From the UHGV virus genome UHGV-0168042: a stretch of DNA of 64,000 bases. One strand, 5' to 3'. A model generated the notes under the pieces. The model saw only the letters and a program-made list of their open reading frames with translations, was not told the DNA's origin and ran no database searches. Positions within the stretch are counted from its first letter, which is position 1. Each line of letters opens with the position of its first letter. This DNA is from a virus. This document shows, one piece after another, positions 25,209 through 30,707 of the stretch. The translations under genes and the position numbers were made by a program.

Positions 25209-25976
25209 TCACCCCATAGATATCGAGGTTTCGGTAATAATACGTTTTGCGTCCAACTCCCATGCTGTGATCACGTCTGTAATCACACTTATCGGCGCTT
25301 GTGTGGCATAAATACGCTCTTCTCCAATTGGTGCTGAAACATCCGTAAAGCCGACTTCTTTGGCATCCTGTATCGAGCAAATCAGCGGGACCGGGACACG
25401 AACAAGGTGAGTGGTTGCTTCAAATTGTGTACCTGTCATCAGGCGAAGCCGTGCGCCCAGCGAATTACACATCAGACTCATGGTCGCTTTATCAGTTGCC
25501 ATTAACGTAACGTCATACGTCAGAATGGCCTGGGTGTATTCCAGTTCTGCTAAAGGCATTCCGGTATCTGGTTCGCAAAAACTGGCTACTTTTTTGCGGT
25601 CAATCTGCTGATCATCGTTGATATAATTGATATCCATAGTGCGTGAGATATTGACCAGGGGGAGAGCATCCCGGTTAATGTTCTGGTTTTCAGGTTTTCT
25701 CCCTTGCCCGGCATTTGCGCGACGAACTGCTTTAAGAAACTCGATCGCATTGTCGAAACGGGCCATATAGACACGCTCTGCTGGTGGACGATTCAGGAAT
25801 GACGCAAAGCGTTTTTCTTCCGGCGCGGGGGCCACCAGTAAGATATCAGAAAAAATGTTGCTGATTAGCGTCGCAAACGCGTTATCCACGTTTTCAAAGC
25901 CCGTGGTCTGGAATTTTCCTGTGCGTAAGGTTTGCCATTCACCGGTTCGCGCCAGGAGGGTTTTATTTGAAGTCAT
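25209..25976 (-). CDS. Hypothetical tail/baseplate protein (255 aa)
   Basis: Complete ORF in baseplate run. Confidence 0.45.
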   Translation of the reverse strand: MTSNKTLLARTGEWQTLRTGKFQTTGFENVDNAFATLISNIFSDILLVAPAPEEKRFASFLNRPPAERVYMARFDNAIEFLKAVRRANAGQGRKPENQNINRDALPLVNISRTMDINYINDDQQIDRKKVASFCEPDTGMPLAELEYTQAILTYDVTLMATDKATMSLMCNSLGARLRLMTGTQFEATTHLVRVPVPLICSIQDAKEVGFTDVSAPIGEERIYATQAPISVITDVITAWELDAKRIITETSISMG

Positions 25977-26776
25977 TCGATCACTCCGTTTTGAGTCGTA
26001 TCAAAATTTCTGGCAGGTATGCAGTAGTAAAGCGAACCAACATGCTGTGTGCCGTAGCTAAAAATACGGTGCACGTACCACCAGCGGCGGGCTACGCCGT
26101 TTACCATCTCTTCATTCCATTCAAGAATTGAGCCGACGGGGACGTTATTTGCTGCAATACGCAGAATCAGAACATCATCGGTTAAGCCATCCTGCTCACC
26201 GTCTGCGTCAATCGCATGGAAAGAGTCACGCCCGTCAGGGTTATCCAGCACATAAACGATTTCAGGTTCCTGGTAAGTCAGTTCGCGTTGGTTGTTATCC
26301 AGTTCAGTGAATGACTCTTCTCCTGTTTCGTCGCTGACTACCCCATATGTGCCAACATCTGGTCGATATAAGAGAGCCTGAAACGCGTCTGGGCTGGATT
26401 CAATAATCAGCATCCAGTCTGCGCGGATTTGGTCGTTAAAGGCTTTATGCCCGTTATAGCGTGCTTTTAACTGTGGAGTCGGTTCTCTCCCAGCCAGGGA
26501 AGATGGAAGTATGGCTATATCTGATTCGCCAGCATCCGAAGTAAGGCCACCGTTGCTATCAGCAAAATTATCATGGCTATCAGCTTTGGCGGCGGGTTGC
26601 TCTTCCAGAATGCTGAATGAATCCGAACCGGTATTGCCATGTTCCGGCGCGCCTCCTGCATTCGCTTCAATCGGTGCTGGCGTTTCTCTCTGCGTGCTGT
26701 CATGTTCTGACTCCTTACTTGCCAGGTTTGCATCGTCAGCAAACCATTCGTCAAAACGGCCCATAAGCATCCTCAA
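25973..26776 (-). CDS. Hypothetical tail/baseplate protein (267 aa), acidic
   Basis: Complete ORF, 4-nt overlap with downstream gene. Confidence 0.45.
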   Translation of the reverse strand: MRMLMGRFDEWFADDANLASKESEHDSTQRETPAPIEANAGGAPEHGNTGSDSFSILEEQPAAKADSHDNFADSNGGLTSDAGESDIAILPSSLAGREPTPQLKARYNGHKAFNDQIRADWMLIIESSPDAFQALLYRPDVGTYGVVSDETGEESFTELDNNQRELTYQEPEIVYVLDNPDGRDSFHAIDADGEQDGLTDDVLILRIAANNVPVGSILEWNEEMVNGVARRWWYVHRIFSYGTQHVGSLYYCIPARNFDTTQNGVIE

Positions 26777-26926
26777 AGGTCGATCTGTCAGGTATCGAAA
26801 GGAAGATTTTCGGGAGATTGTGATTTTGGATGAAGGAGGGGGAATTCATAAAATGCACTTGCGCACAGTGCAACAGTGCGCTATAGTTATGGCATTCGGT
26901 AATCATCACGGAGGATCAAATGACTA

Positions 26927-27229
26927 ATGACCAAAAAAATTAACATAAAGGATTTCAGGGATGCGTGGCTTGATGATTTTTTTGAATTTTCAACACCACA
27001 TAGAAAGATACCTCCTGATATTCATATGACATTGTCACGGAAGTTGGACATTATCAATGCCGCAACTACCTGTAAGGATTTAAGATCACCACCAGGTAAT
27101 CGGTATGAGGAACTGTCAGGGAAGCTAAATGGCTATTCATCAGTAAGGGTGAATAAGCAATATAGGTTAATTTTTAAGTGGGTTAACGGAAAGGCCGAGG
27201 ACTTGTATCTCGACCCTCACAAATACTAA
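26927..27229 (+). CDS. higB: HigB-family toxin (RelE/ParE fold, plasmid maintenance killer protein)
   Basis: 100-aa protein with C-terminal pattern (YRLIFKWVNGKAEDLYLDPH) resembling HigB toxins; toxin-first gene order typical of hig loci. Confidence 0.75.
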   Translation: MTKKINIKDFRDAWLDDFFEFSTPHRKIPPDIHMTLSRKLDIINAATTCKDLRSPPGNRYEELSGKLNGYSSVRVNKQYRLIFKWVNGKAEDLYLDPHKY

Positions 27230-27299
27230 AACAGATACCCGGTTACGGACCGGGTTCTGACCAGAGTCCACTTAATACGCACGCTAGTAAGGGCAAAAA

Positions 27300-27638
27300 A
27301 TGAAACAGGCAACCAGAAAACCGACGACCGTAGGTGATATCCTGCTGTACGAATACCTGGAGCCGTTAGAGCTGAAGATCAACGAGTTAGCAGAAATACT
27401 TCATGTTCATCGTAACACCGTAAGTGCTCTTGTTAATAATAATCGTAAGCTAACGATGGATATGGCATATCGCCTGGCAAAAGCATTCGATACTTCTGTA
27501 GATTTTTGGATTAATCTCCAGACCGCAGTAGACCTGTGGGAAGTCGAAAATGACATGCGCGTTCAGGAAGAGTTAAGTCGTATCAATACTGCTGAAAAAT
27601 TTATTTCTCAGCGGAACCTGAATAAAAAAGCAGCCTGA
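27300..27638 (+). CDS. higA: HigA antitoxin (XRE-family HTH)
   Basis: HTH segment INELAEILHVHRNTVSALVNNNRKLTMDMAYRLAKAFDTSVDFWINLQ matches the HigA antidote family. Confidence 0.8.
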   Translation: MKQATRKPTTVGDILLYEYLEPLELKINELAEILHVHRNTVSALVNNNRKLTMDMAYRLAKAFDTSVDFWINLQTAVDLWEVENDMRVQEELSRINTAEKFISQRNLNKKAA

Positions 27639-27673
27639 TATAGTAAAACACATACAAAAAGCCCACTTAACAA

Positions 27674-28054
27674 GTGGGCTTTCCTTTGGAATTAATGAAC
27701 ATTAAAACTATCCGTACAGAACAAGATTATGAGGCCGCACTGCGTGCGGTAGAACCGATGTTCGATAACGAACCGGAAACGAACACCCCGGAAGGTAATT
27801 TCTTGGAGGTTATGTGTCTTCTCATTGAGGAGTACGAGAAAAAACATTACCCAATTGAGCCGCCATCACCTATTGAAGCCATTAAATCCCGTATGGAATA
27901 GCAAGGGTTGACCGTGAAGGATCTGGAACCGGCGATTGGTAAGTCAAATCGTGTTTACGAAGTGCTAAATGGGACACGAAATTTAACGTTACCTATGATT
28001 CGTCGTTTACATTCCCAGTTTGGCATTCCTCTTGAAAGCCTAGTTGGTGTTTAA
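27674..28054 (+). pseudogene. Second HigA-like antitoxin gene interrupted by an in-frame TAG at 27899-27901
   Basis: N-terminal 75 aa (IRTEQDYEAALRAVEPMFD...) and, in the same frame after the amber codon, the HTH part (QGLTVKDLEPAIGKSNRVYEVLNGTRNLTLPMIRRLHSQFGIPLESLVGV); intact homologs carry a sense codon there. Confidence 0.5.
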
Positions 28055-28114
28055 GTTTGGCAGTCTGGAGGGCCGATTTTACATAAAATCAAGGTTTAAA
28101 TATTTGGTGATTAT

Positions 28115-28855
28115 ATGAGCACTGATTCATCAATAGAAAAGGAAAATGAAAAATCATCCGCCCAAAATCTGATAGAAGATGCTGTAAAAGATAAGTTGTT
28201 TAATAAGGTTTTTGCCTACATTTTTATTTCATTTTTAATTTCTAACTGGCGAGATATATTTATATTGTTGAAGTCAAAAGATGATGTTATGTATACATTA
28301 TCTATGGTGTTTGTTGGGGAAAAGATTCCATTATTTGGGAATGTTTTTGTACCCTCATTCGTAGCTCATTTTGTCTTGCCTTTTATTTATGGTGTTGTGG
28401 CTTCAATATTAGCCCCAATGTTAACTTTACTAATTTCTATGGTGACTGGCACAATATACGCTAAATTGAGAGAGATAGATAAAATTGAAGACAAAAAAGA
28501 ACAAGTAAGAAAAATTAACAGAGACATTAATGATCTTACTAAGAAACGGAAAGACGTTGAAGAGCGTCTTGAAAAAGAAAAAGAAGAACATGAATCATTA
28601 AAAAGAAAGGTAGAAGAAGTTAGGGAACAGATTGAATGTGTGGATAGCGATATCCGTCATGTTATTAAATTATATAGAGAGAAAGGTGAGAGCTTAAATT
28701 CGTTGGATGATTTTTATGAATTTTTTACTGCCGTGAAAAACTCATCTTTTCGTTCGGGTGATACAAATGACAGGGAGACACTTGAGGAGATTCTCTCAAA
28801 GCTTTCTGATTCACTTGAAAAAATTAAATGCGATGCTAATAAAAAGGTGGGATAA
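28115..28855 (+). CDS. AT-rich membrane protein with N-terminal TM helices and C-terminal K/E-rich coiled coil (candidate exclusion/abortive-infection-type protein)
   Basis: 246 aa; hydrophobic segments VFAYIFISFLISNW and FVLPFIYGVVASILAPMLTLLISMV, then a long charged coiled coil; markedly lower GC than neighbours; followed by a hairpin terminator. Confidence 0.55.
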   Translation: MSTDSSIEKENEKSSAQNLIEDAVKDKLFNKVFAYIFISFLISNWRDIFILLKSKDDVMYTLSMVFVGEKIPLFGNVFVPSFVAHFVLPFIYGVVASILAPMLTLLISMVTGTIYAKLREIDKIEDKKEQVRKINRDINDLTKKRKDVEERLEKEKEEHESLKRKVEEVREQIECVDSDIRHVIKLYREKGESLNSLDDFYEFFTAVKNSSFRSGDTNDRETLEEILSKLSDSLEKIKCDANKKVG

Positions 28856-28880
28856 ACCCACCTTTGTTAATTTTTTATGT
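28844..28880. terminator. Bidirectional hairpin terminator between convergent genes
   Basis: aaggtgggataaacccacctt followed by a T run. Confidence 0.5.
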
Positions 28881-30057
28881 ACTCCATGAACATTTTTTCA
28901 GCTTGTGCTGGTGGTGTTCCAGCCATGACAAGCGCATCAATGAACGCCTGCTTCTTCAGTGCGAACTGATCGGCAAGGCGTTGCTGAAGTTCCTTATTTT
29001 TCTGTTTCTCACGTTGCAAGGCCGCTTCTTTTGCAGCCGCCCGTTTTTTCTGTGCGTCTGACAACTTTCTGGCCCTGGTCAATTGGTCACGTAGCTTGTC
29101 GATATTGCCGTTGTCCTTTGCCAGTTTTGTACTTAAAGCTGCCTGGCGCTTCTGATAGAGCCTCCATTCGCGTTTGGCGGCTTCAACGTTTGTTTTACTG
29201 CTTCGATTGCGATTAAACTCCTTCTCGTCTTCTTTTGAGAAGTGTTTGGTTGTACGGCGGCGATCGTCACCAAATGCAATTTGCGTTGCAGCCTTTTGTA
29301 GCGCACGAGCAATACTCATTTGCCAACTGGCGGACTGTAACCGCGTCATTGAGTGGATCACGTGTTTACAGGCGACGCCTTGCAGCTTCGGGTTGCGAAC
29401 TTTTGGATAGGCGTATTCTTTTGGCGGGGCCAGGGCAAAGTTACCCGCAGTAGCGATGTAACGATACCAGTATTGATGACGACCACAGTCACAATCGAAA
29501 GACACTCGCCCGGCGCACAGTGATTTAGTGATTTTGAGAGCTGATTTATCGTCTTCTGCGATGTCATCGACCATCTGATCCCATTCTTCAAAGCGTATCC
29601 GGACGATATGGTGCTGGTGGACGGATATATCCGATGCTTCTACGCGGATATTAATCACGTTGTGGCGAAGAGATACGGGGGTAGCTCTTTTGATACCAGA
29701 TCCGTCATCCACGGCGTTATTTGCACGCTTAATATCGATTGCCTGGCTGGATGCCACCAGCTGGGCGTATGTGATGCCAGCCGTCTTGCTGTCATATTTT
29801 TCGCGTGTTTTACTCCGTAGCTTTTCGAAACCTTTCAGGTCGTCTCGCGTGAAGAACGTGCCGCCTTTTTTCTTCCCTAACTTGAGAATATCTTCGGCGG
29901 ATTTGTTCCTCAGTCCACCTGGCGTCAGCGTCCGGTGAGCTTGTCGGCGCTTACGGGTTTGTTCTTTCCTGATAATCTCGAATATACGCGTGAAGTCCTT
30001 AGAGGACAGACCGTCAGTGATATAGCGCCCGTCCTGGTTTTTCAGGAAATCAGGCAT
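28867..30057 (-). CDS. SWIM-type zinc-finger protein with long basic coiled-coil C-terminus (396 aa)
   Basis: CxC-Xn-CxH signature (FDCDCGRHQYWYRY...GVACKHVIH); C-terminal K/R/Q/E-rich helix. Confidence 0.5.
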   Translation of the reverse strand: MPDFLKNQDGRYITDGLSSKDFTRIFEIIRKEQTRKRRQAHRTLTPGGLRNKSAEDILKLGKKKGGTFFTRDDLKGFEKLRSKTREKYDSKTAGITYAQLVASSQAIDIKRANNAVDDGSGIKRATPVSLRHNVINIRVEASDISVHQHHIVRIRFEEWDQMVDDIAEDDKSALKITKSLCAGRVSFDCDCGRHQYWYRYIATAGNFALAPPKEYAYPKVRNPKLQGVACKHVIHSMTRLQSASWQMSIARALQKAATQIAFGDDRRRTTKHFSKEDEKEFNRNRSSKTNVEAAKREWRLYQKRQAALSTKLAKDNGNIDKLRDQLTRARKLSDAQKKRAAAKEAALQREKQKNKELQQRLADQFALKKQAFIDALVMAGTPPAQAEKMFMEYIKN

Positions 30058-30379
30058 TTTCTATCTCCGGTTCCGCGCTTGCGTAATCACGGATCTTGTT
30101 CCTCAGCCATGCCACATCAGGAAGAGTTAACGTGGTCCCTGCGGGCATTTCTTCCATTTCTGACTCATGGCCCACCAGCACCCGGAATACCCAGCGCAAA
30201 TCTGCATTGCCATACGCCCTGTAGGCTGCAAGGTCTGAACGATATACTTCATCAATCTTTATCGTGTACTGGAAATTATCAGAGTGATACTCCGATACCC
30301 GCTTAATCATTTCCTGGTGAAACAGCGCACGAAAAATATCGTCTTCAATGTACCTATCGTCGAGTCTGCTATAGCCCAT
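30050..30379 (-). CDS. Hypothetical protein (109 aa), translationally coupled upstream partner of the SWIM protein
   Basis: 8-nt overlap with the 28867-30057 start. Confidence 0.5.
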   Translation of the reverse strand: MGYSRLDDRYIEDDIFRALFHQEMIKRVSEYHSDNFQYTIKIDEVYRSDLAAYRAYGNADLRWVFRVLVGHESEMEEMPAGTTLTLPDVAWLRNKIRDYASAEPEIENA

Positions 30380-30572
30380 AACAAAGCCTCTCAGTCATAA
30401 CCTGGTGGAAACTGTATGCAGGGTGTGAAATGCGAGAAACAGACAGGCCACCAGTTCAGGGGGATGTGGTTCATAAATCCCCTCACTGGTGACAAGTGAC
30501 TTTCATTAATCTTTATGCGGGGGCCAGCTTCATTTGCTGGCATTAGATTAAAAATTAAACGGAGTGAATGAC

Positions 30573-30707
30573 ATGGATGTTATCTTCGAATTATTAATGC
30601 TAATTGATCTGTTTATGAACGCTTCATTGACCACGCAAATACTGGCGTCAATATTTTTGTTACTCTTCTACCTGGTATTGAGGGAGTTAACAAAGCTACT
30701 AATGTGA
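30573..30707 (+). CDS. Candidate small hydrophobic peptide (44 aa)
   Basis: GGAG RBS 8 nt upstream of ATG; single predicted TM helix (MDVIFELLMLIDLFMNASLTTQILASIFLLLFYLVLRELTKLLM); below the track size cut-off. Confidence 0.3.
   Translation: MDVIFELLMLIDLFMNASLTTQILASIFLLLFYLVLRELTKLLM

Follow-up and report, generated by a model that had tools for sequence, protein, structure and literature searches.

An AT-rich membrane coiled-coil gene inserted into the tail operon of D6-like phage-plasmids: a candidate defence or exclusion effector

The virus genome UHGV-0168042, analysed here as one stretch of 64 kb (the window), belongs to the D6-like phage-plasmids of the P1 family and carries between two of its tail genes an AT-rich open reading frame (ORF; 28115–28855, plus strand), which we call gene X. 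Gene X starts with an ATG, encodes 246 amino acids and is the counterpart of orf73 of Escherichia phage D6. A role in defence or exclusion, to which we give about an even chance, is the most likely one because of four features taken together: AT-rich insertions on the opposite strand that interrupt late operons in several unrelated temperate phages, presence/absence polymorphism, alleles that differ deeply and above all in one half of the protein, and repeated adjacency to defence and toxin–antitoxin (TA) genes. In combination they are the hallmark of accessory genes with which a prophage acts from the lysogen on its competitors. The more specific reading that we favour, in which X is a membrane effector of defence or exclusion, carried by prophages and equipped with a variable sensor in the cytoplasm, would fall just short of even. 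The original prediction, made from the nucleotide sequence without database searches, had guessed at an exclusion or abortive-infection (Abi) determinant, and the insertion, the allele pattern and the neighbours of its relatives make that guess more plausible.

The insertion is seen by comparison with P1 itself, in which genes 26-25-7-24-6-5 form one contiguous late operon (L097 3114–7865), with genes 25 and 7 separated by 3 nt and no X. In D6-like elements, a cassette of ~2.1 kb containing hig genes and X on the opposite strand separates these two genes; since they are contiguous in P1, the cassette is an opposite-strand insertion into the late tail operon. Its left border in the window is the homologue of the P1 tail protein gene 7 (25973–26776, minus strand; the D6 counterpart, D6_69, is annotated 'similar to P1 gene 7') and its right border that of the tail protein gene 25 (28867–30057, minus strand; phrog_1722, E 1e-195; 57% identical to P1 gp25), whose D6 counterpart, D6_74, is annotated 'similar to P1 gene 25'. 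Positions 26800–30400 are 96% identical to D6, and the same DNA is present in one IMG/VR contig (L010). D6 orf73 lies at the equivalent site and on the corresponding strand, flanked by genes 7 and 25 and preceded by the same hig genes, but belongs to a different allele class.

The lower GC content that had been claimed for gene X relative to its neighbours is borne out both overall (0.320, against 0.48–0.50 for tail genes 7, 25 and 26) and at third codon positions (0.271, against 0.46–0.53 for the same genes). At 0.32 versus 0.475 for the window, it is the lowest-GC spot of the 64 kb, and a GC content of ≤0.36 over 741 nt is reached nowhere else (z = −4.6; 0.18% of stretches of this length are equally low). 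Gene X combines two marks of a moron, a deviant base composition and insertion at a site where a related phage has neighbouring genes.

Comparison of 25 D6/P1-like loci shows a sharp difference between the backbone and gene X. The proteins gp7, gp25 and gp26 and the Hig proteins are mostly 96–100% identical to those of the window, whereas X is only 37–47% identical, and at least eight allele classes occupy the locus in these elements. Variation is distributed unequally along the protein. With the closest allele (L048, from pF374-2) left out, identity is 49–65% in the membrane half (residues 1–120) between D6-type classes and 16–26% in the C-terminal half between allele classes; the membrane half is 40–42% identical to that of the Enterobacter-type allele (L030/L042), and the closest allele shares 90% of its membrane half and 77% of its C-terminal half with the window. 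Between classes, synonymous divergence (dS) in X is ~1 or more and the ratio of nonsynonymous to synonymous divergence (dN/dS) is 0.2–0.4, as compared with a dS of 0.05–0.15 in the flanks. On these values the X alleles are old sequences under purifying selection that have recombined into a young backbone, and not junk; a pattern of this sort is usual for loci of specificity or defence. The overall dN/dS of X is 0.34; against the nearest allele (pF374-2) the ratio is 0.12 for the membrane half and reaches 0.92 for the C-terminal half.

The predicted architecture of the protein follows the same division. The original prediction of an N-terminal multi-transmembrane segment followed by a long K/E-rich coiled coil agrees with the two hydrophobic helices and the 74-residue heptad stretch that we find, the latter also modelled as helix by AlphaFold. 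Residues 1–31 (28115–28207, plus strand, as for all segments) comprise a variable acidic N-terminus and a conserved KDKLFNK juxtamembrane helix (helix 8–28 in the model), probably cytoplasmic. The first transmembrane (TM) helix, TM1 (residues 32–52; 28208–28270), is assigned by hydropathy, carries the family-invariant N44, next to W45, and is modelled with a predicted local distance difference test (pLDDT) score of ~90. A putative periplasmic loop (residues 53–80; 28271–28354) contains a KSK motif (K53, S54 and K55, invariant in the alignment of close relatives), a short helix and a β-hairpin. TM2 (residues 81–116; 28355–28462) includes the invariant P89 and the near-invariant G93 and P101, with hydropathy up to 2.1; by hydropathy this second hydrophobic segment spans about 74/81–116, and it continues into a long helix, 81–189. 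The coiled-coil stalk (residues 117–190; 28463–28684; pLDDT 95–98) is rich in K and E, 61% of its 74 residues being charged, and shows the sustained hydrophobic heptad periodicity of a coiled coil in one register throughout, which none of 2,000 shuffled sequences matched. The small C-terminal head (residues 191–246; 28685–28852), modelled as three helices (197–209, 211–214 and 220–245), is the most divergent part across alleles, yet Y187 and D199 are conserved. The AlphaFold model, a monomer computed from a 38-sequence alignment (mean pLDDT 85), thus consists of a helical hairpin, the continuous helix 81–189 and a three-helix head (197–245); a run with a 12-sequence alignment reached a pLDDT of 63, and only the 38-sequence run was used. 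There are 3 K/R residues ahead of TM1, 3 within the loop and 5 behind TM2, from which we favour an N-in/C-in topology that would leave the stalk and head in the cytoplasm and a loop of ~25 residues outside.

Such a protein is not an isolated case. A profile search run exhaustively over 1.84 billion cluster representatives returned 66 proteins with E≤1e-3, each standing for one 50%-identity cluster, most of them 210–290 amino acids long and matching near end to end. A word-index protein search gave only 12–21 close relatives (in the set of 12, every named source was E. coli), and the hidden Markov model (HMM) search was needed to reveal the family; a scan of the genome collection yielded one locus. 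The X protein aligns with the phrog_8191 HMM (function unknown) over residues 1–244 and profile positions 1–242 of 242 (E 9.7e-75), and is 40% identical in amino acids to D6 orf73 (D6_73, ASR76396.1, 'hypothetical protein'). In the 38-sequence alignment of the family, N44 and P89 show no variation and G93 and P101 almost none, and most members share the TM hairpin, the coiled coil and the helical C-terminus. Since homologues occur in 66 cluster representatives and the membrane half evolves at a dN/dS of 0.12, gene X is a real gene, and a chance or spurious ORF is excluded. More broadly, the notion of a non-functional ORF, whether arisen by chance or left as a decaying remnant, retains a vanishingly small probability: some copies are cut short and no promoter was identified, but an ORF of 246 codons in 32% GC DNA, a family-wide architecture with invariant residues, the constraint on the membrane half and the pLDDT of 85 are all at odds with it.

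Database searches place the family outside known ones. Pfam-A and NCBIfam returned nothing above curated cut-offs for X, only sub-threshold coiled-coil matches, and the 38 aligned members have no Pfam family in common. In PADLOC-DB 2.0.0 the best matches of X were LmuB, JetC and PbeC (E 1e-4 to 1e-3), all confined to residues 116–243, and no PADLOC family was shared by more than three of the 38 members. The earlier remark that the protein matches no nameable family therefore holds, the only hits being phrog_8191 and coiled-coil noise. The check for a housekeeping membrane protein suggested at that time likewise gave no significant sequence or fold match in Pfam, NCBIfam and PDB sequence and fold searches. 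No paper in the library searched characterises D6 orf73 or the X family, and the relevant ones deal with hotspots in general. Membrane accessory proteins of prophages that are candidates for Abi or superinfection exclusion (Sie) are a known kind; the X family and its fold are new.

The i-spanins, too, combine a membrane anchor with a coiled coil, and the location of X among tail genes, together with a weak match to the Rz-like spanin phrog_739 (E 0.008), would suit a protein with a part in the lytic cycle of the phage itself, be it in the timing of lysis, as a spanin- or holin-like membrane component, or in assembly. We regard such a role as very unlikely. The spanin match is limited to the coiled coil, the gene lies on the strand opposite to the late operon, and both P1 and some D6-like elements lack it. 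Elsewhere the gene is shortened and the element persists, and X also occurs in non-phage plasmids and chromosomal islands.

The relatives of X are in fact spread over diverse replicons, and the family is carried as an AT-rich accessory gene (moron) by temperate phages, phage-plasmids, plasmids and genomic islands of Enterobacterales. In D6/P1-like elements, X is always placed at the 7/25 junction, behind one of three unrelated HigBA cassettes; some D6-like elements have HigBA at this junction without X. Conversely, in a distant P1-like lineage (gp25 72% and gp7 56% identical), a gene from a different subfamily of X stands alone at the 7/25 junction without HigBA (L049 2526–3260, L050 3992–4681; GC 0.35 versus 0.51). 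In a P2-like prophage, X is located on the opposite strand between gpV and gpS; a defence and accessory hotspot inside P2 tail genes was described in a 2026 survey (PMC13586616). About thirty other prophage contigs (L062–L096) carry longer relatives of 240–358 amino acids (for example, L064 3947–4687 and L077 3941–4993). In many of them X is on the opposite strand and convergent with a gene for a 488–514-residue protein that follows one for ~200–225 residues, and in L077 and L090 it lies between the 488–514-residue gene and one for 559–561 residues. The neighbour set of these contigs includes matches to Terminase_2 small subunits and T7-type Head-tail_con portals, and the flanks are presumably the large terminase (the 488–514-residue gene, of which the 491-residue protein has no Pfam match) and the portal.

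Several relatives adjoin defence genes. In an integrase-bounded island of Citrobacter, X is found by the integrase, a mad6/PD-T4-6-like kinase (E 1e-21) and a TmtA/MkoA-like (Tiamat/Mokosh) helicase (E 5e-37). Other relatives follow a PD-T7-4-like DUF4145 protein (E 5e-13) at a distance of 12 nt, or lie directly downstream of AbiTii (E 3e-45), beside a HEC-04/OLD-like ATPase and a cytosine methyltransferase, and in an island with methylase, DUF1173, DUF4942 and H-NS genes. One more occupies an unremarkable chromosomal site in Enterobacter.

TA modules are found directly upstream of X relatives in five backbone/cassette combinations. In an SSU5-like phage-plasmid backbone (L038/L039 4781–5621, L046 4221–4945), the slot 5′ of X is taken by TacA-TacT in one element and by a PF09907-type HigB with HigA in another: the TA cassette has been swapped before a retained X, as in D6-like elements. 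Large IncFIB/HI1B plasmids of Klebsiella carry the order HigB-HigA-X, with X cut after residue ~134 by IS903B (L041 5201–7425, K. pneumoniae NZ_CP104679.1). PLSDB holds 156 plasmids encoding an X relative, 146 of them typed as non-mobilizable; 55 are from Klebsiella, and most of these show the same partial N-terminal match. Between the Klebsiella plasmids and Enterobacter P1-like phage-plasmids HigB, HigA and X are 99, 99 and 93–95% identical, indicating transfer of the block between a phage-plasmid and ordinary plasmids.

Because X recurs directly downstream of HigBA or TacAT, a link to TA systems is a live alternative, although we consider its explicit form unlikely. It states that X is the HigA-regulated third gene of a HigB-HigA-X module, co-transcribed past an attenuating hairpin, and serves either as effector or membrane anchor of a TA-based defence or as cargo whose retention the TA pair enforces. 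Consistent with this, X follows on the same strand after a spacer of 55–70 nt in three unrelated HigBA lineages of P1/D6-like elements, the order is the same in an SSU5-like phage-plasmid and in the Klebsiella plasmids, and TacA-TacT replaces HigBA once. The near-identical block shared by the P1-like element and the Klebsiella plasmids moved intact, and the three genes have co-diverged between the P1-like and SSU5-like blocks (HigB 54%, HigA 53%, X 25% identical). The spacer has no detectable promoter, and a hairpin follows every HigA stop codon. There is also a precedent in PD-lambda-2, where a HigBA-like pair needs a third gene for defence (PMC9519451). On the other hand, X stands alone at the 7/25 junction of the distant lineage and occurs without TA genes in P2-like and other prophages and in chromosomal islands, HigBA occupies the junction without X, X alleles reassort with HigBA cassette types, and X matches no component of PD-lambda-2. 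Moreover, the HigA immediately 5′ of X is an orphan both here and in D6, and is decaying, with an amber codon in the window and a shortened frame in other elements, so that X does not depend on it.

That the gene adjoins a hig locus, as originally proposed, was confirmed by Pfam matches: a HigB/RelE-type toxin (26927–27229, plus strand; PF05015, E 4.4e-35) is followed by an Xre helix-turn-helix (HTH) antitoxin (27300–27638, plus strand; PF01381 HTH_3, E 7e-11; annotated HigA in D6), together a type II HigBA pair. Next comes a second higA-like gene (27695–28054, plus strand), homologous to D6_72 (119 amino acids) and interrupted by an in-frame amber codon at 27899–27901, where codon 69 has changed from CAG to TAG and D6 has Gln; in other D6-like elements this gene is shortened to 66 amino acids. 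It resembles an antitoxin orphaned when the toxin of its HigB/HigA pair gave way to the RelE-type HigB/HigA cassette. A toxin–antitoxin relationship between X and this upstream HTH gene was rejected, as the HTH gene is amber-carrying or shortened while X is intact, and as it is an ordinary HigB partner in other elements. Between higA and the second higA-like gene lies a hairpin with a 13-bp stem (27656–27684), which the scan scored as a terminator of the minus strand; the inserted RelE-type HigBA cassette may end there.

The 60-nt spacer 5′ of X (28055–28114, plus strand) contains a degenerate copy of the post-higA hairpin of related elements and a GGTGA Shine–Dalgarno sequence at 28106–28110. 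At the other end, the terminator claimed for gene X corresponds to a predicted intrinsic terminator (28843–28876) that overlaps the X stop codon and is common to X and the convergent gene 25: a 9-bp stem (28843–28865; ΔG −14.1, z −3.3) is followed by a T run, and the minus strand also has a T run. The description of the gene as stand-alone stands in part. Members of the X family do occur alone elsewhere; here, X is the last of four same-strand genes, 60 nt past the decaying second higA, and not plainly autonomous. Antisense late transcription from the gene 26/25 side, crossing the cassette to gene 7, could silence the cassette during lytic growth. The cassette and the minus-strand T run of the hairpin might also stand in the way of late transcription reaching gene 7 and the genes after it.

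Some further observations concern the surroundings of the cassette. The −22 box annotated for the P1 late promoter LP26, the 9-mer AAATGACTA, recurs letter for letter directly 5′ of the higB start (26918–26926). It was rejected as a late-promoter box: about 0.5 matches are expected by chance in the window and no good −10 element lies beside it, so the copy is probably a coincidence. What had been described as a SWIM zinc-finger operon convergent to X is the P1 gene 25/26 tail–baseplate operon (the phrog_1722 match above); the product of 28867–30057 gave no Pfam SWIM match at E≤0.1. A SWIM-like CDCGRH...ACKH (CxC...CxH) motif is visible in its translation, and a metal site might exist in this gp25-type tail or baseplate protein. 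A second accessory site lies between gene 26 and mat, where some D6-like plasmids carry a RelE/ParE toxin with a HigA (L048 6467–7038, pF374-2); weak matches occur at L016 8457–8642 and L023 9190–9375, and the window has only short ORFs there (30380–30707).

Morons encode many functions other than defence, and X might be a membrane protein of lysogenic conversion or carrier fitness, acting in the envelope, division, stress or plasmid-phase biology. An N-terminal anchor followed by a cytoplasmic coiled coil is the plan of bacterial division and envelope scaffolds, to which X shows only noise-level matches (EzrA and ZapB). One homologue does lie in the ordinary-looking Enterobacter neighbourhood, and D6-type alleles are plasmid-only in complete E. 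coli genomes: an X allele detectable at the DNA level is present in 67 of 5,426 such genomes, always on a plasmid of ~90 kb, and the exact allele of the window has a single carrier among them, a 98-kb plasmid of E. coli GF60. Extreme allelic diversity within identical backbones is, however, unexpected for a host-physiology factor, the family repeatedly adjoins defence and TA genes, and no significant similarity to a housekeeping family was found. A non-defence function of this type consequently seems rather unlikely to us.

Defence or exclusion, although preferred, has to be weighed against several points. X has no homology to known Sie, Abi or defence proteins in PHROGs, PADLOC, Pfam, NCBIfam or PDB sequences or folds, and its topology derives solely from positive-inside counts. 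The neighbourhood sample is small and non-random and has no matched control. Coiled coils tolerate substitutions and the overall dN/dS of X is below 1, so that the low C-terminal identity partly reflects weak constraint and not an arms race. No consensus sigma-70 promoter was detected in the 60-nt spacer or upstream of X where it stands alone, in scans that were uninformative. Finally, X is often cut short, by IS903B in the Klebsiella plasmids and by frameshifts in some P1-like elements, and some D6-like elements lack it altogether, which makes it dispensable.

For a defence or exclusion effector we infer the topology, the expression in lysogens, the anti-phage activity and the division into sensor and effector. 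X would be an inner-membrane protein composed of a two-helix hairpin bearing N44/W45, P89, G93 and P101, a stalk of ~11 nm and a helical head. Made in the lysogen or plasmid carrier, it would guard the cell, and with it the element, from other phages or from relatives of the element. Stalk and head, which diverge fast, would be the specificity or sensor part and the conserved membrane hairpin the effector; a conserved hairpin joined to a variable coiled coil and head fits a membrane-anchored sensor–effector. The hairpin might oligomerise and render the membrane leaky or depolarised, as in abortive infection; alternatively, X might block a membrane step of genome entry, as in superinfection exclusion. 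We lean somewhat towards the Abi-type sensor–effector, because the topology we favour leaves the stalk and head in the cytoplasm and exposes only the ~25-residue loop outside. A bolder version, to which we assign a small probability, is that X represents an unrecognised single-gene anti-phage or anti-element system whose many old alleles mediate allele-specific kin discrimination or exclusion among near-identical D6/P1-type elements, and whose recurrence behind HigBA or TacAT reflects a coupling to these TA modules. A rapidly exchanging head would then recognise specific invaders and act through the coiled-coil stalk on the hairpin effector, and the TA pair would control X or back up its effector when host transcription collapses.

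Single-gene membrane proteins of Sie and Abi include T4 Imm, P22 SieA, lambda/P22 SieB, HK97 gp15 and lactococcal AbiP and AbiZ. X resembles them as a small inner-membrane accessory protein of prophages, with predicted expression independent of late genes and with allelic variability, but no sequence or fold similarity to them was detected, and its long cytoplasmic coiled coil and head are not theirs. Entry-exclusion proteins of conjugative elements, such as Eex of SXT/R391, are likewise inner-membrane proteins of mobile elements, and as in X, allelic variation of a cytoplasm-facing C-terminus would decide specificity among close kin. They differ in setting, as X is mostly found on phages and non-conjugative elements, in line with the 146 of 156 plasmids typed as non-mobilizable.

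Two further systems, reported by Vassallo et al. 2022 (PMC9519451), are comparable in layout. The first is a membrane-anchored coiled-coil DUF4041 nuclease defence protein, which like X has an N-terminal anchor followed by a central coiled coil and is a single-gene system on mobile elements; X, however, has no DUF4041 match and no C-terminal nuclease or DNA-binding domain, only a helical head of ~50 residues. The second, PD-lambda-2, consists of a HigB-like protein, a HigA–peptidase and a third component, and resembles the window in having a HigBA-type pair adjoining an extra gene. D6_72 matches the HTH part of PD-Lambda-2_B (E 4e-43), as do the two halves of the second higA-like gene of the window (E 2e-20 and 2e-13). 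However, D6_72 and the window remnant cover only positions 1–119 of the 402 in that profile, D6_72 having 119 residues and neither of the two a peptidase part; the HigB at 26927–27229 has no PADLOC match to PD-Lambda-2_A at E≤0.01; and X gives no PD-Lambda-2 match that would make it the P4-beta-like component C. Membership of X in PD-lambda-2 was accordingly rejected on all three components.

If X is a true defence or exclusion gene, it would add to the anti-phage repertoire a compact and structurally orphan family, invisible to Pfam, PADLOC and fold searches, in which a membrane effector carries a swappable coiled-coil and head sensor. The 25/7 junction of D6/P1-like phage-plasmids is an accessory-gene hotspot for TA modules and X. 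The natural allele series suits the mapping of specificity, with a shared backbone, membrane domains that are 49–65% identical and heads that are 16–26% identical. D6/P1-like phage-plasmids, which carry resistance genes, are common in E. coli and Salmonella of patients and food animals; genes that gate the entry of phages and sister elements would therefore affect phage therapy, transduction and plasmid epidemiology.

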